NCBI GenBank assembly: GCA_963805925.1
Contig: CAWDWB010000009.1
Location: 517,746-581,745 of the forward strand
DNA: 64,000 bases
Direction of reading: 5' to 3'
From: an uncultured Acidobacteriota bacterium
GTDB taxonomy: Bacteria; Acidobacteriota; Terriglobia; Bryobacterales; UBA6623
The position numbers were made by a program, and so were the translations under genes. Below, one piece after another: positions 1,759-43,350 of this stretch (the stretch's first letter is position 1; the number at the start of each line of letters is the position of its first letter). The notes beneath the pieces were generated by a model, which was not told the origin of the DNA, did not search any database, and saw only the letters and a list, made by a program, of their open reading frames with translations.

Positions 1759-2769
1759 CTACTTGCCCACCACAAGCACCGCAAAGCTGCCGGGCTTGAT
1801 GATCCGGCGGGGCCGGCCATCAGGAGTGGCCGCTGGCTCCGTGCCGTATTCGACCGACGGAAGGAAGATCTTCTTCGTCTTGGGATCAAACGCCATGGTC
1901 TTGGCGCTCCGCTGCGTCTGCACGGCGCCGGCGTCTTCGTATTCGTCGGCAGACTTCTGGCGGAAGATATTCAACACGCCTTCAGCGGTAGAAACGAAGA
2001 TCAACTTGGCGTCGGCGTCGAAGTAGGCCCAATCAGCGCCCGCTCCGGTCGGAAGGCTCGTGATCTCTTTGCCCGACGATGCATCCATCACAACCAACAT
2101 CGGCTCATTCCGGCAGGCGATGAAAAGCCGTTTGTTGGCGGCGTCGTAAGCCAGACCAGTCGGCGTTTTGGACTTCGTGATGGGCAGCCGCCTGAGGACT
2201 TCGAGCGTGTTCGGGTCGAACACAATCACTTCACCCGCTTCTTCGCTGTTGACGTAGATCAGACCATCAGCCATGATCGGCTGCTCGCCGTCTCCCTCCG
2301 CCTTGACCGTGCCCACGACTTCGCCCTTGGCGGCGTCGATCGCGGTGATGTCGTGCGTCCCGTGGTTGTTCGTGAAGACCCGCTTGCTGTTGGGTTCGTA
2401 ATAGATTCCGTCCGGTCCCTCGCCGACGTCGATGCGCTTGATTTCTTTCAGCGTCTTTGTGTCGAACATCAGAACCTTGTTCTCGCGGCCGTTGCTGGTG
2501 AAGCCGCGATTAAAGGGCGTTGCGAGCGCTACGCCGTGCACGCCCGGCGTATTCGCCAGGGTGCCGGCAACCTTGCCGCTATCAGCATCGATTACGTCAA
2601 CCTTCGTTCCGTGAGCCACGTAGAGCCGGCGCGCGGCCGCGTCTAACGTGACATAGTCGAACCCGTCGTCTCCGGCGACGGGGTAACGAGCTACTACTTT
2701 GTAGCCAGTCTGTGCCTGCAACGACAGCGCAATAAGCGCCAGTCCCATCAACGTGAGCGTCTTTCGCAT
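1759..2769 (-). CDS. Secreted beta-propeller repeat protein (YncE/YVTN-like)
   Basis: ATG at 2769 gives the signal peptide MRKTLTLMGLALIALSLQAQ. The sequence has repeated Dxxxxxx(Y/F)V...D propeller-blade-like units. The upstream part of the 382-aa ORF lacks coding character. Confidence 0.7.
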   Translation of the reverse strand: MRKTLTLMGLALIALSLQAQTGYKVVARYPVAGDDGFDYVTLDAAARRLYVAHGTKVDVIDADSGKVAGTLANTPGVHGVALATPFNRGFTSNGRENKVLMFDTKTLKEIKRIDVGEGPDGIYYEPNSKRVFTNNHGTHDITAIDAAKGEVVGTVKAEGDGEQPIMADGLIYVNSEEAGEVIVFDPNTLEVLRRLPITKSKTPTGLAYDAANKRLFIACRNEPMLVVMDASSGKEITSLPTGAGADWAYFDADAKLIFVSTAEGVLNIFRQKSADEYEDAGAVQTQRSAKTMAFDPKTKKIFLPSVEYGTEPAATPDGRPRRIIKPGSFAVLVVGK

Positions 2770-3081
2770 GGTTTTCTCTTGGTCCTTTGGGCAGTCCGAT
2801 GCCGTTGCTGACAATAGCGCTTCCGCCGTCAGTCCGCGGGAGTCCCATGTACCGGATCTTACAGCCCAACCGGCCGAAAAGGAGACGGAGCCCAAGAATC
2901 TCCCCAACGACGGCGGAAGCTCCTTGCTTTGGCTCCGTCATTGCCCCATTTACGCCCTCTTCTGAAATTAACAAATCGTCCCGGGTCCGTCGCCGGAGCG
3001 CCTCCGAACGGTCTCTGTGGCGCTTCTAGACTCTCCTTATTGCCTACAGCACGAAGAGAAACAAAGGAAGTTCGAGAGCTT

Positions 3082-3405
3082 ATGAGACACATAGTCCAAC
3101 CAATTCGCAAGATCTGTACCCTGGCGCTCGCCGCCCTCACGCTCGCTGCGGTTGTGAGCACTCCGCCGCAAGCCATCGCTGCCGGGCGGGACGACGATCA
3201 AGGCCGTGAGGACCACGCCGATCGCAACTCTTACGCGATCGGACTTTGGGGCGGCTTGCCTTACTCCCCCGAACAGGCGGCCGCTCTGCAGAACATGATC
3301 GCCGACATGAATTCGCAGGATCTCGCCTCCTCCGCACACGACGGCGATTTGAAGAGCGGTTCCGCATGCCCAAAAATTTGGAGGCCCATGCTACAACGGA
3401 TGTAG
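3082..3405 (+). pseudogene. N-terminal fragment of a secreted metallophosphoesterase-like protein (truncated)
   Basis: Signal peptide MRHIVQPIRKICTLALAALTLAAV, then AIGLWGGLPYS...AHDGDLK resembling calcineurin-like phosphoesterase N-terminal motifs. The ORF stops after about 108 aa, far short of the family's usual length. Confidence 0.3.
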
Positions 3406-3572
3406 AAGATTCCTGGCTAGGCGAGATACGGCCAGGGGCGCCGCTGCAGCGGTCGCAGGGTCTCGGGCGCGCGGTCAAAGCCAGAAGAGCCGCAGCGTAA
3501 GAGCGAAACAGAAACTAGGGTCGACCCAAAGACATCTCCGGTTCCCCGCTTGGAAGGGAATCCAACCTTCGT

Positions 3573-3604
3573 CCAAAGGGCTCCTCATCTGAGGGGCCCT
3601 TTGG
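3573..3604 (+). terminator. Strong stem-loop (14-bp stem), terminator-like
   Basis: CCAAAGGGCTCCTC-atct-GAGGGGCCCTTTGG followed by GCGTTT. There is one G.U pair in the stem. Confidence 0.4.
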
Positions 3605-3866
3605 GCGTTTGGCCTTCAATTCATCAACTTCGCCAATCCGGCGCCCAACCTCCATCTCAGGGCGCAACCTCGCCCCAACCTCAATCCACACTGCCTAGCG
3701 CAACAGAGCCGCGATCGTGAGGGGCGAACCGGCTACCCCTCTTCACCAGACGGAACCCAAGGTAATGCGAAAAACGGGGGCACGAATCCCTCTATGAACC
3801 CGTCGCCTGCGTTTGGGGTTCGGATGCGTTTTTGCTACCTTGAGAGCCGCCCAACAGGAAGCGAAA

Positions 3867-5723
3867 ATGAAACTTGTAGATCTCAAACCCTTCGCGATCG
3901 CCTTATTAACGGCAGTTTCGGTGCTGGCTCAACAGCCCGCGACCATCGCCGCAAACGACAACCGGACGCCGGCGGGCGAGTTGCGCGACGGCGTCCTGCA
4001 CTTGGAGTTCAACATCGACAAGGGCTCGTGGTATCCCGAGTCGGATAACGGCGAGTCGATCCCCGTGTATGCCTTTGGCGAGACCGGCAAGCCGTTGCAG
4101 ACTCCGGGACCGACGATTCGCGTTCCGCAGGGCACGACCATCGACATTTCGCTGCACAATTCGCTCACCGTGCCGGCGACGCTGCACGGCTTCCATCAGC
4201 GACCGGGCAAAGATAGCGATACGGTGACGGTCGATCCCGGCCAAACGCAGCATGTACGCTTCAACGCAGGGGCCGCGGGAATCTACCCCTACTACGGACG
4301 CACCCCGGACGGCGGAATGGGCGCCAACGGCAGGAACCGCGTCCTCGACGCTTTGCTCGGCGGAGCGCTGGTGGTGGATCCGCCGGGCACAGACCCCACT
4401 GCGGACCGCATCTTCGTGCTGGAGCGCTGGAAAGGCGCGCTCAGGACGGCGATCAACGGCAAGTCCTGGCCGTTCACGGAACGCTTATCCGCCGAGGTGG
4501 GCAAGGCGGTTCATTGGAAAGTCCTCAACGTGTCGGACCTCAGCCATCCGATGCACTTGCACGGTTTCCACTTCTGGCTGGACGCGGAGGGCGACGGAGA
4601 GTCCTACAAGGTACTCGACAAGAGCGAGAGGCACGAAGAGTTCACGCATTCGGCCGATGTCATGGAGACTTTCGAGATCACCTGGATGCCAAAGGAGCCG
4701 GGCCGTTGGCTTTATCACTGCCACCGGATGGCGCACATGCGGCTGCCTCTGCCGCTCCAACCAGGGGATGGCGTGGTCCCGGAGCATGTTGCCGAACACG
4801 AACACATGGAGGACTACGACTCAGGCTATGCCGGTTTGGGCGGCATGATTCTGGGCATTACCGTGACGGGGCATTCTGAGTTCGACACGGTGACCAACTG
4901 GCAAGCCGAACGACGAGTGAAGTTGGATGTGACCAACCGCAACGGAGATCCTTCTCTCTACGAGATCGCGCTTACGGACCTAAATTCCGATGCGCCGCCG
5001 GAGAAGAGTACAGGATTGACCGGGCCGCTGCTCGTCGTCACTGAGGGTCAGAAGACGGAGATTACCGTTGCTAACAACGCTTCGTCGGCGACGAGCATTC
5101 ACTGGCACGGGCAAGAGATCGAGAGCTATTACGACGGCGTGCCGTGGTGGAGCGGGATCGGAGAGAAGCGCGCGCCTCTGGTGGAGCCCGGACACGAGTT
5201 CAAAGCGAAGCTGATCCCCCAACGAGCAGGGTCGTTCATCTATCACGCCCATTGGCATGACGGCGGTCAGTTGATGGGCGGCATACAGGGACCAATGATC
5301 GTGCTGCCGCCAGGAGAGACATACGATCCGGAAAAGGATAAGTACTTCATCATGAGTTCGGCCCCTCCGGGATGGTACGGCGGCGCTATGCTGCTGATGA
5401 ATGGACTGCCTCAGCCGACGAGGGGCATGCGCTTGCGAGTAGGCGAAACGTACCGCTTCCGGTTCATGAACATCACTCCAGTGGGAGACGCGTTGCATGT
5501 GGGGCTCATGGGGCCGTCGGGCCCTGTCGAGTGGCGGCCATTGGCAAAGGACGCGGCCGAGACGGCGAACCACGAACTGCGCGCGGCGGATCAGCATGTG
5601 GCAGTAGGCGAGACGTTCGACTTCGAGTACCGCGCGACGAAGGCCGAAGAGCTTCAGCTAGAGGCCTGGTTCCCCGGCGGCAATCCGCTCATCGTGGAAA
5701 CAGTGGTCTTCGAGGATCGCTAG
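3867..5723 (+). CDS. Multicopper oxidase
   Basis: ATG at 3867 gives the signal peptide MKLVDLKPFAIALLTAVSVLAQQ. Copper-ligand motifs present: HPMHLHGFHF, YHCHRMAHM, IHWHG, YHAHWHD. Confidence 0.85.
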   Translation: MKLVDLKPFAIALLTAVSVLAQQPATIAANDNRTPAGELRDGVLHLEFNIDKGSWYPESDNGESIPVYAFGETGKPLQTPGPTIRVPQGTTIDISLHNSLTVPATLHGFHQRPGKDSDTVTVDPGQTQHVRFNAGAAGIYPYYGRTPDGGMGANGRNRVLDALLGGALVVDPPGTDPTADRIFVLERWKGALRTAINGKSWPFTERLSAEVGKAVHWKVLNVSDLSHPMHLHGFHFWLDAEGDGESYKVLDKSERHEEFTHSADVMETFEITWMPKEPGRWLYHCHRMAHMRLPLPLQPGDGVVPEHVAEHEHMEDYDSGYAGLGGMILGITVTGHSEFDTVTNWQAERRVKLDVTNRNGDPSLYEIALTDLNSDAPPEKSTGLTGPLLVVTEGQKTEITVANNASSATSIHWHGQEIESYYDGVPWWSGIGEKRAPLVEPGHEFKAKLIPQRAGSFIYHAHWHDGGQLMGGIQGPMIVLPPGETYDPEKDKYFIMSSAPPGWYGGAMLLMNGLPQPTRGMRLRVGETYRFRFMNITPVGDALHVGLMGPSGPVEWRPLAKDAAETANHELRAADQHVAVGETFDFEYRATKAEELQLEAWFPGGNPLIVETVVFEDR

Positions 5724-34902: not shown

Positions 34903-36243
34903 TCAATAACTGTCGAATAACGTGACCGTGTAGTCCTTGCTGGCCAGCATGTTTTCCAAGACCGGCCAGAGTCCCTGATGGGTGTCCGTGGCGACCCATG
35001 CTTGGCGCTGCGCTTCGCTGCGGAAGCTCAGTACGAAGCGATAGTTCATGCGGGCAGGCGGCTTGCCCATCAAGGCCGAGTCCAGTTTGAGCAACTTGAG
35101 GTCGATGTATCCCGGCTGCTTCGCGGCCGCCGGCCGGAACTCGGTTTCGAAACTGCGAACGAAGGCCGCTTCCTTCGCCGGGTCGACGTTCAAATCGACG
35201 TGCAACTCGATCCCGCGCGGAGCTGGTCCGTAGAGCGGGCGCATGCCGGGCACCGATAGCTTGATGCGGTAAAGGCTGGTTTCGGCCGTCATGTAGAGCG
35301 ACTTGCCGTCATCGCCCCAGGCGGCGTTGGCAGGACTCTCGGGCGGTTGGATTGTGCCCAGGTGCTTGCCGCTGGCGTCAAAAACCCAAACTCCGCCGGG
35401 ACCCGAACCGTAGACGTTGCCGGCTTCATCGACCTTCATGCCGTCCGGCAACCCGGCAGCTGGCTCGTTGGTCACATCGGCAAAAACTCGCCCGTTGGAC
35501 ACGGTGCCGTCGGCGTTCACGTCGTAGGCCATCCAGAACCTGTGGTTCTCATCGGAATTCGAAACATAGAGAGTCTGGTAGTCGGGCGAAAAGGCGATCC
35601 CATTGGGACGCGTCAGATCCTTCACCAAGACTTGTAACTCGCCGTTGGACAAGCGATAGACGCCGTTGAAGTCAAGTTCTTTTGCCGGGTCGTCATCTTG
35701 CGCCGGCAAGCCATAGGGCGGATCGGTGAAGTAGAGCGAACCGTCGCGATGGAAAACGAGATCGTTCGGGCTGTTGAGCTTCTTGCCCTCGAAGCTGTCG
35801 ACGAGCGTCGTCACCGTGCCGTCTTTGGCGATGCGGGCGATGCGTCGGTTGCCGTGTTGGCACAGCAGTACCGAGCCGTCCTTGTCATAGGTCATCCCGT
35901 TGGGGCCGATGAAGCCCCCCGCCGGCAGACTGTCTCCGTCATATCCGCCGGGACGCAGCACCTCGGTGACGGTTCCGTCGGGAGCGTACTGGCGCACCAC
36001 GTTGCCGACGACGTCGCTGAACCATAGCGAACCGTCCTCGCGCCAAAGCGGACCCTCGATAAAGCTGAAGCCGCCGGCAAGCTTCTCGATCTCGGCGCCT
36101 GGCGGGACGATGGCGTCCAAGGCGGGGTCGAGCCGCTGGACGCTCCCTGTTGAGGGTGCTTCGGGTTCGGGAGCTGGAGGCGGCGCCGTGCAGCCGAAAG
36201 CGACGAGAACAAACAGAGTGAATAGAGAGTGTTTTTTGAGCAT
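34903..36243 (-). CDS. SMP-30/gluconolactonase/LRE-family lipoprotein with a C-terminal ABM-like domain
   Basis: ATG at 36243. MLKKHSLFTLFVLVAFGC contains a lipobox. FIEGPLWREDGSLWFSDV and six-blade propeller-like repeats. The last roughly 100 aa resemble an antibiotic-biosynthesis-monooxygenase fold. Confidence 0.7.
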   Translation of the reverse strand: MLKKHSLFTLFVLVAFGCTAPPPAPEPEAPSTGSVQRLDPALDAIVPPGAEIEKLAGGFSFIEGPLWREDGSLWFSDVVGNVVRQYAPDGTVTEVLRPGGYDGDSLPAGGFIGPNGMTYDKDGSVLLCQHGNRRIARIAKDGTVTTLVDSFEGKKLNSPNDLVFHRDGSLYFTDPPYGLPAQDDDPAKELDFNGVYRLSNGELQVLVKDLTRPNGIAFSPDYQTLYVSNSDENHRFWMAYDVNADGTVSNGRVFADVTNEPAAGLPDGMKVDEAGNVYGSGPGGVWVFDASGKHLGTIQPPESPANAAWGDDGKSLYMTAETSLYRIKLSVPGMRPLYGPAPRGIELHVDLNVDPAKEAAFVRSFETEFRPAAAKQPGYIDLKLLKLDSALMGKPPARMNYRFVLSFRSEAQRQAWVATDTHQGLWPVLENMLASKDYTVTLFDSY

Positions 36244-36439
36244 GAGCAGCGACCAGTTTTGAGAACGCCGCAATTGTAGCTCTTCCGGGCTGCTTGGCGG
36301 AGGGGTGAATCAGTTGACGCAGCGCCGTTGCTGTCCGACAATCGGGCCGGAACGATCAATGCCGAGGAGAACGAAACGGATCGAATGGACTGCGCGTTGG
36401 GCGGGCTTTCTGTTGATCTTGGCGGCCGGCGCCGTTCTC

Positions 36440-36487
36440 GGGGGAAACCGGGGGGAAACCGGGGGGAAACGGGGGGAAACCGGGACA
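36440..36487. repeat. Tandem 11-bp repeat GGGGAAACCGG x4 (one unit lacks a C), ending in the R-element TIR half-site AAACCGGGACA
   Basis: Read directly: gGGGGAAACCGGGGGGAAACCGGGGGGAAACGGGGGGAAACCGGGACA. Confidence 0.85.
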
Positions 36488-37255
36488 TCCATGATAGGTA
36501 TTTGTCAAGGATGGACGCAAGTAGATCCTGAGGCCGGTGGAGAGACCAGCGTTAGTATGGCTCAGCGAAGAGAGAAGCGGACAGAGCCTTACGGGGTCAA
36601 CGGCCAGCGTGACTGACATCCATGAGGCTGCAGCGGGCCTGAGGGCCGTAGCAGAAGTTTCAGCTTAGGGTTAGAGCCGCGTCGGCCTCGAAACAGTCGA
36701 GAACGGTCGCAGGCGGGCCTTACGGCCTTGGCGCAGTGCCCGGATCGGCGCAGGACCGAGCGGGCGGCTTGTCTCCGGCTTCGCCCGAGAATCTTGTGCT
36801 CCTCCTCAGGCCGCTCGCGTACGCGGCCGAAGGGCTCGCTGGAGCGGTCCACGGCGAGAAGGTAAGCGACCAGCTTGCGCGCCACCGCCAGGTCGCGCGG
36901 TTGCGCGAGCGGTGCAATAACTCCCGCTCATGAACGGCCTGGAGTTCGGGGTTGAAGCGAGGCGTCGAGTGTTCGCGGCCTCGTAAGCAGGTGCATGCAG
37001 GTGCTTGTTGCGCTGCTTGCGACAACGGCGCGCGCTGCGTCTTGCCCGACCGACTCGCGTTGCGCCGCGCAGCAGTCAACGCAGTAGCTCACCGCCCGAC
37101 GCACCGAGCTGAATCGCTAGGGTTCAGCGACCTCCAAGGCCCACGTGGAGGGCTCGAAGACCTTGTACCCACGCCGTCGAATGGATTGCCGAAGCGGGCG
37201 ACAGCGTTCTCTCAACAGCCGATGTTGGGCGAGCCCTTGCAGCGAGACGCCGTTC
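36488..37255 (-). mobile_element. Degraded, 5'-deleted copy of the IS110/IS1111-family element (3' arm plus 3' part of the transposase gene)
   Basis: Collinear with 39724..40467 of the intact copy. It starts with the same TCCATGATAGGTATTTGTCAAGGATGGACGC and has many substitutions and indels that break the transposase frame (ORF fragments 36589..36885, 36720..37079). Homology ends at ...GACGCCGTTC. Confidence 0.75.
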
Positions 37256-37271
37256 GGGGAAACCGGGGGAG

Positions 37272-37448
37272 AAACCGGGACAGCCTCAATTAGCATTGGC
37301 CCCATCTCTAAGTCATTGATTCAACTAGATCTACGACGAGAATCGGAGCGGCGCGATATCGCGTCTTTAGGCTGCAACTGATTGAATAATAAAAGCTTCT
37401 GCTCTCAGAACAGATTCTGCTTGATTACAATTGAGGCTGTCCCGGTTT
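37272..37448. mobile_element. R1: 177-bp MITE-like element with perfect 20-bp terminal inverted repeats
   Basis: Left TIR AAACCGGGACAGCCTCAATT (37272-37291), right TIR AATTGAGGCTGTCCCGGTTT (37429-37448). The interior is AT-richer and 100% identical to R2 and R3. Confidence 0.85.
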
Positions 37449-37935
37449 GCCCCACTCGATCTAGCTCCTCGATTAGTTGCAACACCGAAACACGCTCGTC
37501 CTCATGGAGTTCAAACCAACGCCCACCGGTCAAAGTATCGACTGTGGCCTCGGCGATGTATGCGTTCTCGGCATCTGAACTGAACCATACGGAAAGATCT
37601 CCTCTATCGATACAAAGACGATAGTCGAATCGCGAGCCTCCTCCTTCCGTCGAATCCCGTTCTACCGAAACTGTCTCTTCAAGGACGCGCAAGAGTTTTT
37701 GCTTCAGCGATGCAGAAATCCTCTGACTCGAAACCAGATATCTCTCATCCTTCAATGCCGCTGCTGCCACAGCAGTGCGTGTCAGAACTTGCGGCGACAG
37801 GAAGTAGACTCTCATGACGTCATCGGCCGAGACTGCCGTACAGCCCGCGAAGGCCCCAACCCAAGCTGCGGCAACGACAATCGACAACACCAACAATGCC
37901 AACAACCGTCGTGGACTAATGGGCGTAGAAGTCAT
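37405..37935 (-). CDS. Hypothetical lipoprotein, immunity-like orphan; the last 14 codons are read from R1
   Basis: MTSTPISPRRLLALLVLSIVVAAAWVGAFAGC contains a lipobox. AAGGTGA RBS. The ATG overlaps a preceding TGA (ATGA). The ORF leaves native sequence at 37448/37449 and terminates inside R1. Confidence 0.45.
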   Translation of the reverse strand: MTSTPISPRRLLALLVLSIVVAAAWVGAFAGCTAVSADDVMRVYFLSPQVLTRTAVAAAALKDERYLVSSQRISASLKQKLLRVLEETVSVERDSTEGGGSRFDYRLCIDRGDLSVWFSSDAENAYIAEATVDTLTGGRWFELHEDERVSVLQLIEELDRVGQTGTASIVIKQNLF

Positions 37936-38001
37936 ACTTCACCTTTTGTTGGCCGCGCGCCGCTTCTTCGAGCTTGAGCATGGACGCCGCGCTTGTTGGG
38001 G

Positions 38002-38178
38002 AAACCGGGACAGCCTCAATTAGCATTGGCCCCATCTCTAAGTCATTGATTCAACTAGATCTACGACGAGAATCGGAGCGGCGCGATATCGCGTCTTTAG
38101 GCTGCAACTGATTGAATAATAAAAGCTTCTGCTCTCAGAACAGATTCTGCTTGATTACAATTGAGGCTGTCCCGGTTT
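38002..38178. mobile_element. R2: second identical copy of the 177-bp MITE-like element, same orientation as R1
   Basis: Base-for-base identical to 37272..37448. Confidence 0.85.
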
Positions 38179-38204
38179 GCCCCCGGTTTGCCCCCGGTTT
38201 GCCC
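38171..38204. repeat. Tandem 11-bp repeat CCCGGTTTGCC x3, beginning inside the R2 right TIR
   Basis: Read directly: CCCGGTTTGCCCCCGGTTTGCCCCCGGTTTGCCC. Confidence 0.85.
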
Positions 38205-38456
38205 CGCAAGCGAGGCTTCGTGGCGGCTCAGCCGACCGAAGCCGGGGTCGCTCCCGCCCTTCCCCTGACCCCCAAAACGGGGTCCTGCCGCCACCGCTCC
38301 GCTGTACTTCGCTCACTCTTCGGCTCTTACCGGCCCAAACGGTGAACGCCTCCCATCGAAACTACGGTGAACGCCCCTTTTTTCCTGAGTTCACCCGCCT
38401 CCCGCCACGCCACGGGGGTAAAAAGGGCGGTCGTAGGATGTGGCGGGCACGTAGGT

Positions 38457-38903
38457 TTACAGAGTTAACCATCCATTGCCTACAATGCCTAGAATCGTCT
38501 CGAAGTCTCGCCGATCCAATACTTCACTAGTCTCTACTTGGTCATCGGTCCACATTTCGGGGGTGGAGAGCAGTCTAGTCAAGACGATCTGCGAACCTCG
38601 CGGACAACGCATGAGATAGTATTCCCGCACTATGCGGTCGCTGCTCCAATCCTTGTATTCAGAAGCTCGCGCCCAGTGGTGGGTCGAAACCAAATGCTCA
38701 AGCTCTTGATCTCTTCCGGTGCCGTCACCGACAAAAACTGACGCCAGTTTCACTAGCGCATGACCGTCAAGACTGCCCCCACATACCGAACATGGGCTAA
38801 ACCGATCACGGACAACAGCAAGAGTACGGTCGGCAGAGGACATGCGCTTCGGGCGCCAAGCAAATAGCTTTAACAGTCTATCCGACACACTAAGCATCAT
38901 CAT
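38457..38903 (-). CDS. Hypothetical protein, candidate immunity protein for the upstream glycine-zipper toxin tip
   Basis: 148-aa ORF starting 9 nt after the toxin stop, with GGACGAGGAAA-ATG. No recognisable domain. Its position is typical of Rhs/CDI immunity genes. Confidence 0.5.
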   Translation of the reverse strand: MMMLSVSDRLLKLFAWRPKRMSSADRTLAVVRDRFSPCSVCGGSLDGHALVKLASVFVGDGTGRDQELEHLVSTHHWARASEYKDWSSDRIVREYYLMRCPRGSQIVLTRLLSTPEMWTDDQVETSEVLDRRDFETILGIVGNGWLTL

Positions 38904-38912
38904 TTCCTCGTC

Positions 38913-39711
38913 CTAGTTCAGCCAATCGTAAATCTTGGTTGCCACTTTTTCGCCACCGATTCCGCCGGCGATGCCTCCACCTAGGGCACCTATAACTCCG
39001 CCAATCGCCGCTCCGGGAACGGCTCCCGCCCCACCAAACCATACGCCAACCGCTGCACCGACTTGCGCCCCAGCGGCACCGCCAATACTCCCAAGTGCAA
39101 CCGCTCCTGCCCACGTACCACCTTCCTGGGCTAGTGCACGCGATTTATTGTCTGCGGTTGCTACGTTATACGCTGATACGCCTGCACCGACAACCATGAG
39201 CGCTGGCCCGGCTTTACCCGCAACCCCCATCGCTGCGTCAACAGCAGCATTAGATTTCGATGCGGTACCGCCAACTCTCGCGGCTTCATTGGCGATAGGG
39301 CGCATAGTTTCGGCGATCGCCGCCCCCGTTGGGGAACTGGCGGCACGGGCCTCGATCTTGAGAGCGGTCCTTGCCGCCGATGCAACAGGATCTCCTTGCG
39401 GTGCTCCCTGCAACGTTTGCAGGCCCTGGTTGTAATTGGCTCGGGCGGCAGCATCCTGTGTTGCCTGGGTGCCCACACTCACGGCGGCACCTTGAACTGC
39501 CCGGCCCGCCGTCTCTTCATCCGTACAACGTTGTGTCCCATCCGGGCAACTGTCAGCTAGTCCATTCGGGTCAACTAGGCGAAGAGGATTATTAAGAACG
39601 TAAGCGTACGCGTTCCACGATTGAGGCTGAGACGCTCGAGCTGCCGCATTTCCCGGATCAACGCTCGTAAATCGCCCGAGGCTCGCCGACATGTACCGCG
39701 CCCCGAAGTGG
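38913..39711 (-). CDS. Orphan Rhs C-terminal tip: end of the RHS core (FGARYM...GRFTSVDP...NNPLRLVDPNGL) plus a glycine-zipper-rich C-terminal toxin domain; 5'-truncated
   Basis: RHS repeat-associated core signature, then a variable C-terminal domain ending in long G/A-rich zipper helices (GAAVGVWFGGAGAVPGAAIGGVIGALGGGIAGGIGG). Upstream homology ends at the R3/IS boundary. The ORF-track N-terminus MDVPVS is translated from TIR/IS sequence. Confidence 0.7.
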
Positions 39712-39723
39712 GAAACCGGGACA

Positions 39724-41159
39724 TCCATGATAGGTATTTGTCAAGGATGGACGCAGTCATCCTGAGGCCGGTGGAGAGACCAGCGTTAGTAGGTCAGCGA
39801 AGAGCGAAGCGGACCGAGCCTTACGGGGTCAACGGGCCAAGCGTGACCAGACATCCATGAGCTGCAGCGGGCCTGAGGGCCGTAGCAGAAGTTTCAGTTA
39901 GGGTTAGAGCCCGTCGGCCTCGAAACAGTCAGAACGGTCGCAGCGGGCCTTACGGCCTTGGCGCAGTCCCGGATCGGCGAGGACCGACGGGCGGCTTGTC
40001 TCCGGCTTCGCCCGGAATCTTGTTCTCCTCCTCAGGCCGCTCGCGTACGCGGCGCGAAGGGCTCGCCGGAGCGGTCCACGGCGAGCAGGTAAGCGACCAG
40101 CTTGCGCGCCACCGCCAGCGTCGCGCGGTTGCGCGAGCCGTGCAATAACTCCCGCTCATGAACGGCCTGGAGTTCGGGGTTGAAGCGCGGCGCTAGTTTC
40201 GCCGCTTCGATCAGCACGGTCTGTAGGTGCTTGTTGCGCTGCTTGGACAAGGGCGCGCGTTGCGTCTTGCCCGCCGACTCGCGTTGCGCCGCGCACAGCC
40301 CGCAGTAGCTCACCGCCCGACGCACCGAGCTGAATCGCTCGGGTTCAGCGACCTCCAAGGCCCAGGTCAGCGCCGTCACTTGGCCGACGCCGCGAATCGA
40401 TTGCAAGCGGGCGACGCGTTCTCTCAACAGCCGATGTTGGGCGAGCCCTTTCAGCAGACGCCGTTCAAGATCTTCAAACGTCTCCAGCATTCCGCGGCTG
40501 AGAGCCAGCAGCTCGATCGCCGACTCCGGCGTGTGTTCGAGCGAATCGAGCAACTGGTAGAAGTAGCGTTTGCCGTGCAGCCGGTCCTTGACGTACTCCT
40601 CTCCGCACTCCATCAACAGGCCGGATATCTTGTTCTTCAGCCGCACCGCTTCGCGCACCAACAGGTTGCGGTAACGCAACACCCGCCGCAACTCGCGAAT
40701 CTCCCCCGGCGCCATGTAGCAGCCCGGCAACAGATCGCAGCGCGCCAGATCGCAGATCTTCTCCGCATCGAGGCGGTCGTTCTTCTTCTTGGCGCAGGCG
40801 ATCGCCTTCAGCATCGCCGGATGCGCCACTTGCAGCTCGGCCGCGTAGGGTTCCAAATGATCGTAAATCCAACCGGTGAACAGCGTCGCCTCCAACGCTC
40901 CGACCCACGGCCCGGCAACGCCTCGGCCCACTCGCTCAACGCCGCCCGCGTGGCCGCCACGCTGCCGGACGCGACCTTCTCTCCGGCAGTCGTCTTCACT
41001 GCATAGCTCACCGTTTTCTTGTGGACATCGAGCCCTACGTAGTAGAAACTCTCCATGGAATCCTCCTGGGTATGACTCGAGGCGCGCCGCTTCGCGGCTC
41101 GTCCTCGCTTTCTTTGTCCTCCAGGAGGATTCTTCTTGGCGCTCACCTATACATCAAAA
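39724..41159 (-). mobile_element. IS110/IS1111-family insertion sequence (about 1.44 kb) inserted in the left TIR of R3
   Basis: Flanks reconstitute the R TIR: AAACCGGGACA|IS|GCCTCAATT, with ACA/CA shared at both junctions. No terminal IRs, but subterminal IRs are present: ATGATAGGT (39727-39735) versus CACCTATACATC (41144-41155). Short 5' arm (about 100 bp) and long 3' arm (about 310 bp), as in the IS1111 subgroup. Confidence 0.85.
40032..41056 (-). pseudogene. IS110-family (DEDD/RuvC-like) transposase, interrupted by a 1-nt frameshift
   Basis: The N-terminus MESFYYVGLDVHKKTVSYAV is the IS110 DEDD_Tnp hallmark. The C-terminal part (40032..40931 frame) carries the Transposase_20-like region (SIRGVGQVTALTWALEV). 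The frames join as ...AEALPG|PWVGALEATLF if one C is added in GGGCC(C)G near 40912-40916. Confidence 0.85.
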
Positions 41160-41327
41160 CAGCCTCAATTAGCATTGGCCCCATCTCTAAGTCATTGATT
41201 CAACTAGATCTACGACGAGAATCGGAGCGGCGCGATATCGCGTCTTTAGGCTGCAACTGATTGAATAATAAAAGCTTCTGCTCTCAGAACAGATTCTGCT
41301 TGATTACAATTGAGGCTGTCCCGGTTT
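41160..41327. mobile_element. R3: third copy of the 177-bp MITE-like element; its first 11 bp lie at 39713..39723 on the other side of the IS
   Basis: 41160..41327 is identical to positions 10-177 of R1/R2. 39713..39723 = AAACCGGGACA. Confidence 0.85.
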
Positions 41328-41519
41328 GCCGAACCGGTTCCAACTCTGCGGATCGCCTACCCGTCCGGACGCCAAAAGTGGATCAGCGCTTGTGAACCGC
41401 CCCAGGGCCGACGACATATACCTGGCCAGGAAGTAATCCAACCCGGACTCTTGATCGCGTTCTTTGGCGGTGGACCGTTCCGCATCGTACGCGCACCAGC
41501 GCAACAGACCATGGGTCAA
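41328..41519 (-). pseudogene. Orphan Rhs core fragment (…AKERDQESGLDYFLARYMSSALGRFTSADP…PQSWNRF) truncated at the R3 boundary
   Basis: RHS core signature without YD repeats upstream or a toxin domain downstream. The reading frame runs into the R3 TIR and stops there. Confidence 0.6.
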
Positions 41520-42124
41520 AACCTGAAAAGTACCACTTTCTGCTTTGAACTTGATTGGTCAGGCTGCAAAACGCGACTCGCAAGGTTGCCGTCATGCACC
41601 GCGACAATAGTCGTTTCCCGGCCAGGCAGTAGATCGATCAAGACTTTGCCGTCCAATCCCGTTTGATACCACTTCTGACTTTCAGCATTTGCATCCCGGA
41701 CAAGAATCTCAGCGGATGCAACTGGAATCCCATCTCTATTTCGCACTTCCACTTGGCAATGCTTTACACGTCCGATGGTGAAGGCGTTGCCTGTCGTAGG
41801 CAAAACCTCCAGTGCTAACTTCAGGTCGACCGGATCGGTGTTGACCAAGAACTCTCGAACGGTCGTTCGACATAATCCATACGGACAAGTCGCAATAATC
41901 TGATAAAGCCCCATCGCAAGGTCTTGCGTCGGAACGGCGCCATTCCGATTCGTCAAGGCCCTTAAGCTTTCTCCCCTTCCTTCAAGAGATCTAACGATTA
42001 CAAGAACATCCGGGAAACCTAAACCTGATTTGTCCACGGTCACGACATGCACCTGGGCCGCTTGGGTGCAAACAGAGATACCCAGGAACAAGAATGAGAG
42101 ACGAACTTGCTTCCACTGGATCAT
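41516..42124 (-). CDS. Secreted CarboxypepD_reg-like protein; candidate immunity protein for the upstream HExxH toxin tip
   Basis: ATG at 42124 overlaps the toxin stop (ATGA). Signal peptide MIQWKQVRLSFLFLGISVCTQAAQ followed by two Ig-like beta-sandwich-type segments. Confidence 0.5.
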   Translation of the reverse strand: MIQWKQVRLSFLFLGISVCTQAAQVHVVTVDKSGLGFPDVLVIVRSLEGRGESLRALTNRNGAVPTQDLAMGLYQIIATCPYGLCRTTVREFLVNTDPVDLKLALEVLPTTGNAFTIGRVKHCQVEVRNRDGIPVASAEILVRDANAESQKWYQTGLDGKVLIDLLPGRETTIVAVHDGNLASRVLQPDQSSSKQKVVLFRF

Positions 42125-43350
42125 GGACAGGGCCCTCCCGGCGTATTTGCCACGCACGCAACCTTTTGAGCCTGCTGCGCTGCCTGAGCTGCTCCTTGTT
42201 GAATGATGGTTGCCGCCGCCGCGTCATACTGGACATTCGGTTGGAACTTTTGGCCAGCGGCTCCGAGCGCTTTCACCGTTTGTTGAGCGCGCTTCTCTGC
42301 CGTTCCTCCAGTTGTGTTTTGGGCACCCGGCCTAGATGACGCGTCTCCGGCGGCGCCCGCCGCCGCCGCTCCCTGGAAACTGGTTGCGGAAAGCATGTCC
42401 GTGACATGTTGATCTTCATGCGCAAACGCCGTCAACCCCACTGTGAAGTTGCTCTTCCCTGTCGCTTTGGCCACCGTTGAGATGTTCGAATTGTCTAGAG
42501 TGACGTTGATCCCTGCTACCGCTCCAGGAGAACCAGGAACTACGACCGCTGCACCAGCTGTAACGTTCTGAACCCCATTTCCGGTACTCACGGGTAAGCG
42601 GCCCTGGTCGAACGTGACCGGAAGATTGCTCGCGGCAATCGCGTTGACCGTTGCAGCGCCCTGTGGCGTTCTGAGCATCGTAGAGATGTACTCCTGGACC
42701 TGCCCCTGCATCCCAGGGGCAACGACAAAGTATTCACCAGTCGGATCGACGTATTTTAGCGGGTTGTTCCGCGTGTAGGTGTATCGGTTCCATGTTTGGG
42801 GCTCGCCCTCTGAGTACGGACCCGGGTCAGGGCTCGTAAACCGACCTTGGGCGCTCGCCATGTACCGCGCCCCGAAGTAGTCGAGGCCGCTCTCCGCGTC
42901 GCGTTCTTTGGCGGTAAAGAGCTGATCAAAGCCTGCCGGGTCGCCGTAGCCCGTCACGCTCGCGCGCGCCCCGTACGTATCCGGGATCTCTTCGCCGAAG
43001 GGGAAGAAGTCGTAGCGCGAGACGACGGCCGGCGTCGTGCTGTCGTCCGTCACCAAGCGCGTCGAGCCCAAGTGATCGGTCGTGCGGAAGTAGCTGCCCG
43101 CGGGCGTCGTCGACGCGGCGGTCGAGTACTCCGCCGCTAGCCGTCCCGTGGCGTCGTAAACGTAGGTCGTCTCTGCGCCCGTGTTGTAGTCGATCTTGCG
43201 GACGCGGTTGCCTTCGCCGTCATAGACGTACTCGGCGTCGGCGTTCGCGCTGTTGCACGTCCCCAGCGTGTTCTGGCGGGCTCCGTCCCCTTTGGCCTTT
43301 GGCTGGTCCCCTTTGGCTGCCTTTGGCTGAGAATGTGCTGTGACCGTCAC
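42121..43350 (-). CDS. Orphan Rhs tip: last YD repeats plus RHS core (…AKERDAESGLDYFGARYM…NNPLKYVDPTGEYF) plus C-terminal domain with an HExxH motif
   Basis: YD-repeat consensus (YVYDGEGNRV, YVYDATGRL). Core signature, then a roughly 220-aa variable domain containing AFAHEDQHVTD. Only a GTG start immediately after an in-frame TGA. The N-terminal roughly 24 codons are not Rhs-like. Confidence 0.7.
   Translation of the reverse strand: MTVTAHSQPKAAKGDQPKAKGDGARQNTLGTCNSANADAEYVYDGEGNRVRKIDYNTGAETTYVYDATGRLAAEYSTAASTTPAGSYFRTTDHLGSTRLVTDDSTTPAVVSRYDFFPFGEEIPDTYGARASVTGYGDPAGFDQLFTAKERDAESGLDYFGARYMASAQGRFTSPDPGPYSEGEPQTWNRYTYTRNNPLKYVDPTGEYFVVAPGMQGQVQEYISTMLRTPQGAATVNAIAASNLPVTFDQGRLPVSTGNGVQNVTAGAAVVVPGSPGAVAGINVTLDNSNISTVAKATGKSNFTVGLTAFAHEDQHVTDMLSATSFQGAAAAGAAGDASSRPGAQNTTGGTAEKRAQQTVKALGAAGQKFQPNVQYDAAAATIIQQGAAQAAQQAQKVACVANTPGGPCP

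Follow-up and report, generated by a model that had tools for sequence, protein, structure and literature searches.

The window analysed here is a 64-kb stretch of DNA from a Bryobacterales-type acidobacterium. It contains an Rhs orphan island at about 36.3-44.3 kb, flanked by a gluconolactonase-like gene and pntB. The features of the island are listed in Table 1. Read on the minus strand, the island begins with an Rhs core and tip fragment, a 213-aa protein, an Rhs core fragment, the repeat copy R3 and an Rhs core end with toxin B, and it continues with immB, a spacer, two tip units, R2, the tail of toxin C, immC and R1. Beyond R1 lie one extra tip unit, a truncated IS110 copy (37255-36488) and an R-type tip with four units. 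No full-length rhs gene was found in the 64-kb window.

Table 1. Features of the Rhs island, with positions given in the coordinates of the window
Feature	Positions	Strand	Remarks
R-type left tip	36438..36487	+	four tandem tip units; truncated IS110 copy had inserted into it
Truncated older IS110 copy	36488..37255	-	about 97% identical to the full copy; abuts R1
Extra tandem R-tip copy outside R1	37256..37267	+	GGGGAAACCGG; not at this junction in L038
R1	37268..37453	+	186-nt non-autonomous element with terminal inverted repeats (left 37268-37291, right 37429-37453)
Terminator-like hairpin and T-run within R	37398..37414	-	at the immC stop codon; also in R2 and R3; consensus match only
immC	37405..37935	-	176 aa; native part 37456-37935 = residues 1-160; residues 161-176 and stop from R1
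Toxin C remnant	37916..37997	-	last 27 codons of an Rhs C-terminal toxin; overlaps immC start by about 20 nt
R2	37998..38183	+	second 186-nt copy, orientation as R1
Two further tandem copies of R right tip	38184..38205	+	CGGTTTGCCCC
Spacer, R2 to upstream module	38206..38456	.	unique non-coding, 251 nt; without toxin-coding capacity
immB	38457..38903	-	putative immunity gene of upstream module; no known family matched
Rhs core end and toxin B	38913..39709	-	TIGR03696 Rhs_assc_core match; 5' side cut by R3 tip and IS110
R3 left tip, detached	39710..39723	+	GGGAAACCGGGACA
IS110-family IS	39724..41158	-	1435 bp, in left TIR of R3; ACA at both junctions; transposase ORF frameshifted
R3 (remainder)	41159..41330	+	orientation as R1; 100% identical to R1 over 172 nt
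Rhs core fragment	41331..41519	-	ends ...DPQSWNRF at R3 junction, on natural GGAACCGG
Rhs fragment, core and tip	43350-42121	-	409 aa

The 409-aa Rhs fragment is followed by the 213-aa protein, which has a signal peptide and a CarboxypepD_reg-like domain (together 41516-43350, minus strand), and these two are possibly another toxin-immunity pair. The C-terminus of toxin B is glycine-zipper-rich (...GGAAGAQVGAAVGVWFGGAGAVPGAAIGGVIGALGGGIAGGIGG...), and this suggests that the tip of toxin B is membrane-active. Exact-protein look-ups gave no record for immB and PntB, and for toxin B only a 1.2-kb contig of the same locus was obtained.

R1 and R2 are direct copies of each other. The repeat search and blastn placed their starts 730 nt apart with a single mismatch at 37270, and blastn aligned 37271-37453 with 38001-38183 over 183 nt without any difference. 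An exact repeat of 183 nt within 64 kb is far above the chance expectation. The two directly oriented repeats and the DNA between them form a block of 916 bp, in which only a toxin tail and one gene are enclosed. The first-pass annotation had described a cassette bracketed by identical direct copies at 37272-38178; this is the same object, 4-5 nt short at each end, and its description of the repeats holds.

Each R possesses 24-nt terminal inverted repeats (TIRs), namely GGGGAAACCGGGACAGCCTCAATT at the left and the near-complement AATTGAGGCTGTCCCGGTTTGCCCC at the right. In single-stranded R, the TIRs form a stem around the 137-nt interior (z = -4.5 and -4.3 against shuffled sequences). By inspection, the 24-nt TIR itself is without an internal self-complementary stem; that is, the left TIR and the right TIR together make the only strong predicted stem. 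The Rfam scan of 36000-42500 gave zero matches, and no promoter was found in the sigma-70 promoter scan. The R3 outer tip adjoins a natural GGAACCGG in the W-N-R codons of Rhs, which hints that AACCGG-like sequences are preferred targets. The interiors of R1-R3 are identical, while the two IS110 copies differ by about 3%, suggesting that of these two layers R is either the younger one or has been homogenised more strongly.

The gene between R1 and R2, immC, was analysed together with its relatives. Among 5.8 billion protein clusters, a word-indexed search gave the immC locus itself alone (P0001), and an exhaustive HMMER scan gave 12 distant homologues, with identities of 29-37% and E-values of 3e-14 to 8e-4. 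The alignment of these proteins shows the conserved motifs VYYLSPxVLTRT and YDFRLC and a C-terminal helix with ...LFxELD at its end. The homologues end 5-15 residues past ELD, and the native sequence of immC in the window extends to ...IEELDR. R1 therefore swaps the variable tail alone, and the conserved domain of immC is intact, so immC may still protect against the cognate toxin family. The replacement of the native C-terminus by R1 had been proposed before; the replacement itself stands, and the R1-derived part comes to 16 codons, not 14, a count that depends on where the boundary of R is placed.

A confident AlphaFold model of immC built on the homologue alignment (pLDDT 81) has an N-terminal helix and a small alpha/beta domain. 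The fold search with this model gave no significant match in the PDB, and the family had no sequence match in Pfam, NCBIfam or the PDB. The N-terminus of immC reads ...WVGAFAGC, with a predicted helix at residues 8-29. The earlier assignment of immC as a lipoprotein agrees with the Cys of FAGC in the window protein, but this Cys is not conserved among the 12 homologues. From its sequence, immC is a predicted exported protein of an uncharacterised conserved family.

The gene neighbourhoods of the homologues bear on the assignment of immC as an immunity gene. In 3 of the 7 contexts examined, the homologue stands directly behind an Rhs-CT toxin, and the other 4 stand alone. These three, P0011 (L039), P0013 (L059) and P0005 (L060), lie 13 nt after a toxin with an Rhs core or overlap it by 4-32 nt, and the C-terminal tips of the three toxins belong to one family with the motif GLGHE(L/F)DHA. 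The toxins, whose shared motif is metallopeptidase-like, are located at 8545-9987 of L039, 2-754 of L059 and 3-1317 of L060, always with the immC-family member behind them. Neither this toxin family nor the immC family matched Pfam or NCBIfam in the scans run.

A corresponding toxin end was found in front of immC. The 62 nt between the immC start and R2 are open in all three reading frames, and the minus-strand frame 37916-37996, TSAASMLKLEEAARGQQKVKYDFYAH*, aligns with the extreme C-termini of the Rhs-CT toxins that precede the homologues. Its identity to the L060 toxin is 59% over 17 residues, and it overlaps the immC start, as the toxins do in L059 and L060. The body of toxin C is absent from the whole 64-kb window; the cut lies 26 residues before the C-terminus of the toxin, and no core precedes it. 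The homology of immC and the position of its relatives behind Rhs-core toxins with similar C-termini support the reading as an immunity gene with the 3' end of its toxin. The earlier calls, an immunity-like gene and a bracketed segment made up of its ORF and a toxin 3' end, are both upheld.

Another homologue, P0004, lies in a different setting (L043, 1-2537), with a RAYT-like gene on one side and two copies of an approximately 230-nt repeat on the other. A TIR-like reiterated tip of this repeat begins at the stop codon of P0004, and a YD-repeat fragment is nearby.

The IS110 elements of the island were examined in relation to R. In the full copy the transposase is divided between the ORFs 40808..41146 and 40032..40931, which overlap at 40808-40931, and because of the frameshift between them this copy is either a pseudogene or affected by a sequencing error. 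The truncated copy is broken at R1 in mid-gene, at a point equivalent to about 40468 of the full copy. The element is inserted in the R-type TIR directly after GGGACA, and the junction AACCGGGACA/TCCATGATAGG ... /ACAGCCTC (slashes marking the insertion points) is repeated in 10 JGI metagenome contigs (L048-L057). The IS110 bodies in those contigs are only 65-74% identical, and the position in the TIR is identical. This indicates an IS110 lineage dedicated to this TIR. Some relatives of IS110, such as IS621 and ISPpu9/10, target REP sequences. About 300 nt of 3' non-coding DNA of the element could encode a bridge RNA.

The TIR was then found to define a family in relatives. In a scan of one genome per GTDB species, the 19-mer AACCGGGACAGCCTCAATT occurred at 37 loci, nearly all of them in Bryobacterales MAGs. 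The interior of R was present at none of these 37 loci, nor in the GTDB representative genomes or the JGI metagenomes scanned. That is, the TIR is the sole conserved part of the family, and it occurs as inverted pairs around unrelated interiors in elements of roughly 100-270 nt. The invariant core of the TIR begins at (AC)AGCC, near the insertion point of the IS110 lineage. The outer part of the TIR (...AACCGGG) recurs in tandem, each time with a few flank bases that are specific to the locus; the period is 7-16 nt, and there are up to 5 units. Such reiterated tips were seen at many loci, L010, L012, L014 and L051 among them, and in total at 38 of 87 family ends (about 45%), and many further ends have degenerate units. 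No target-site duplication was found at 16 complete elements of the family.

In some relatives the TIRs bound a transposase gene. At 4080-4876 of L020, a TIR, a 237-aa Y1_Tnp protein and an inverted TIR follow each other and are tightly bounded at both ends, and in L014, L019 and L051 related RAYT-like genes have a TIR abutting on one side. Three of the RAYT-like genes (L014, L019, L020) are within one MAG, CBDEGU. Pfam Y1_Tnp matched these RAYT-like proteins above its cut-off (2.7e-10 for L020, and 6e-12), and the motif HVH, which corresponds to the HUH motif, is visible in the L020 protein. The only NCBIfam match of the L020 protein was REP_Tyr_transpos (1.5e-18), which at 67 bits is below the curated cut-off of 80. 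The 64-kb window contains neither a RAYT-like gene nor any other matching transposase.

From these comparisons, R fits best as a non-autonomous, REPIN/MITE-like member of a repeat family associated with RAYT. Since the same TIRs closely bound RAYT-like Y1 genes in relatives, R would most likely be moved in trans by a RAYT-like Y1 (HUH, IS200-type) enzyme, which would act on single-stranded DNA without target duplication.

Several other assignments were considered and rejected. R was not taken as a MITE of the DDE type, since its TIRs are those which bound RAYT-like Y1 transposase genes in relatives. It was not taken as a derivative of the adjacent IS110 either, because that IS lies within the TIR of R3 and its ends (TCCATGATAGG... 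and ...CCTATACATCAAA) show no relation to R. The TIRs of R are also not the ends of the IS1595-family DDE element in L028, as this IS of 1040 bp has its own 26-nt TIRs and was inserted into a 193-bp MITE of the family. In L028 the IS lies within the family MITE at 2684-3921, and three copies of the IS are found inside 4 kb. A duplication of the 4 bp CCGG, with palindromic AACCGGTT as the target, would formally fit all elements; this reading was dropped because R1, R2 and R3 have more terminal sequence in common than that. A related pair of MITEs 3.8 kb apart (L017) was not useful as a precedent, since the copies are 93% alike and one is truncated.

We next considered how the copies of R are placed in the island. 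R3 lies between ...PQSWNRF of one Rhs core and HFGARYMS... of another, and the two are non-contiguous. R2 joins the non-coding spacer to the last 27 codons of toxin C, and at R1 the 3' end of immC is linked to the interior of an IS110 copy. Thus, each of the three copies is at a breakpoint, and none is a simple insertion. The same applies to the R1-R2 unit as a whole: its outer flanks are unrelated to each other, a truncated IS110 on one side and unique non-coding DNA on the other, and a simple insertion of the unit is therefore excluded. Neither the R1-R2 unit nor either R was found to be flanked by a direct repeat of at least 5 nt, which would be a target-site duplication.

One might ask whether the repeats or their order arose from mis-joined reads at a repeated element. 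The region is dense in repeats, and the second assembly, L038 (ENA ERZ25039549), contains many indels and a differently polished IS110 copy. However, L038 was assembled independently and is colinear with 42853-36430 of the window over 6.4 kb, through R3, R2, immC and R1, with the same junctions, and the junction of toxin B and the IS is confirmed by the Logan short-read contig L047. The same order in L038 indicates that the R1-immC-R2 arrangement is not an artefact of the window assembly, and we regard a mis-assembly as hardly credible. The truncated IS110 (36488-37255) in L038 is much closer to the full copy than it is in the window, and this is due either to strain differences with gene conversion or to polishing artefacts.

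Taken comprehensively, the block is probably a decayed Rhs toxin-immunity module which is bracketed by short non-autonomous REPIN/MITE-like copies and has been altered by deletions; it is not shown to be a transposon. On the simplest account of the breakpoints, insertions of R would have come first, and R-associated deletions in the island would have followed, either by recombination between direct R copies or by errors of end processing. These deletions would have taken the body of the toxin and spared the immunity gene. In its present state immC receives from R1 a new 16-residue tail, a stop codon and a terminator-like hairpin.

The first-pass annotation had proposed that the block is mobilised as a unit. 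R1, immC and R2 could move whole, through a Y1 enzyme acting in trans on the outer ends of the pair (left in R1, right in R2), or as a circle of R and immC that is excised by R-R recombination and re-integrated at another R in the manner of IS26 translocatable units. The architecture is formally that of a composite element, the direct copies are identical, and the outer TIRs can pair (36 nt at 86%). Along the island the order is R3-module B-R2-module C-R1, with all R copies in a single orientation; however, the probability of such a same-orientation trio by chance alone is 1/4. Within the R1-R2 pair, reiterated tips are at the outer ends only, and at the outer tip of R1 there are two units in the window against one in L038. 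This pattern would also fit active outer ends, but it is weak evidence, since about 45% of all family ends are reiterated. P0004, the second immC homologue, lies amid RAYT-like genes and repeat elements, and cargo flanked by MITE pairs is already known (PMC6382973). Against these points, the search of 15 billion proteins and of the DNA collections gave one locus only. R1-immC-R2 occurred nowhere in the JGI metagenomes, the GTDB representative genomes, the plasmids or the phages, and the only second instance, in L038, is the same locus. In addition, there is no target-site duplication, the outer flanks are mutually unrelated, and the cargo is truncated at either end. The proposed mobilisation was thus not supported. 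The arrangement that had been expected to argue for independent insertions, namely the ORF intact with its toxin and free of R at both ends, was found in part, that is, in the family members of L039, L059 and L060. With both routes taken together, we consider movement of the whole block unlikely. Its mobility as a unit is possible and unsupported, and the flank evidence makes the composite-transposon reading, which is unproven, appear less likely than repeat-associated decay. A wider version, in which the RAYT-associated TIR elements of Bryobacterales serve as movable borders by which the orphan immunity genes of Rhs islands are excised, shuffled or spread, with R-immC-R mobilisable by Y1 on the outer ends or by R-R recombination, seems to us quite improbable.

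Alternatively, the host may have kept R at the 3' ends of the modules because it terminates transcription of orphan immunity genes or stabilises their mRNA, in which case the bracket would be a by-product of the sites at which such elements are tolerated or selected. A terminator-like hairpin is located exactly at the immC stop, R1 comes after immC and R2 after immB, and the TIR-like element in L043 directly follows the stop codon of P0004. REP sequences at the 3' ends of genes are known (PMC3733652). The hairpin, however, is a weak one of 7 pairs, including 3 G-C pairs, and the terminator scan showed no enrichment, with 7 found against 5.1 expected in shuffled sequences. Moreover, R is not confined to extragenic positions, since R3 is located within a fragment of Rhs core and a toxin gene is cut by R2. 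We therefore think that such retention is also improbable as the origin of the block, and decay of the module next to R copies is the reading we prefer.

Taken as it stands, the locus presents an ordinary outcome, in which small repeats and insertion sequences erode an Rhs toxin island and an immunity gene survives. Were the block mobile, immunity genes could pass singly from one competitor to another and so alter the evolution of toxin-based competition, and a mobilisable cassette would be a route by which toxin resistance spreads without the toxin. Three by-products of the analysis may be mentioned: a conserved immunity family, uncharacterised so far, whose partner is an Rhs toxin tip of metallopeptidase-like type; a RAYT-associated repeat family of acidobacteria, with unusual reiterated tips and without target duplication; and an IS110 lineage dedicated to that repeat, which would provide a natural, sequence-defined target for a recombinase of the bridge-RNA type.

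The island can be compared with several known systems. Orphan toxin-immunity modules of Rhs and other polymorphic toxins have reportedly been described by Poole et al. in 2011 and by Koskiniemi et al. in 2014. Like them, our island has Rhs core fragments, toxin tips and, downstream of these, immunity genes arranged in arrays, with toxins truncated and immunity retained. It differs in that the module boundaries are R copies and IS110 insertions, not just core homology, and in that the window has no full-length rhs gene; the core before the toxin is present in module B (TIGR03696) and missing in module C.

With MITE-flanked composites the block shares two identical short, TIR-bearing, non-coding copies around a cargo. 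PMC6382973 describes identical 439-bp MITE copies that flank class 1 integrons in Acinetobacter, and a MITE-297 pair on pA297-3. The match to such composites that had been proposed for the block holds for the two short TIR copies around a cargo, but not beyond this: the block has no target-site duplication, is known from one genomic context without a second, and its cargo is truncated at both junctions. The known MITE-flanked composites are attributed to DDE-type IS transposases, whereas the TIRs of R are associated with a Y1 (HUH) transposase.

The IS26 pseudo-compound transposons and translocatable units, which Harmer and Hall are said to have described, also have direct repeats around a cargo without target-site duplication and form repeat-cargo-repeat arrays, and recombinational movement is conceivable here as well. 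The reaction of IS26, however, is catalysed by a DDE transposase that the element itself encodes, whereas R is non-coding, and no IS26-type reaction is known for Y1/RAYT enzymes.

The R family has much in common with the REPIN-RAYT systems (PMC3116915, PMC3337134, PMC5581495): non-coding inverted doublets, with about 24 nt per repeat, which form a hairpin, a repeat flanking a RAYT-like Y1 gene in inverted orientation (in the loci of relatives, not in the source genome), the absence of target-site duplication, and an IS110-family lineage that targets the repeat. On the other hand, the single repeat of R is not palindromic, its spacer of 137 nt is longer than in described REPINs and is unrelated between family members, the NCBIfam RAYT score is below the cut-off, and the tips are tandemly reiterated. 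In addition, RAYT is typically single-copy per genome (PMC5581495), whereas the RAYT-like genes of the R family occur in several copies per genome (L014, L019 and L020 in one MAG). Both components of the block, a REPIN/MITE-like repeat and an Rhs orphan module, are of known kinds.
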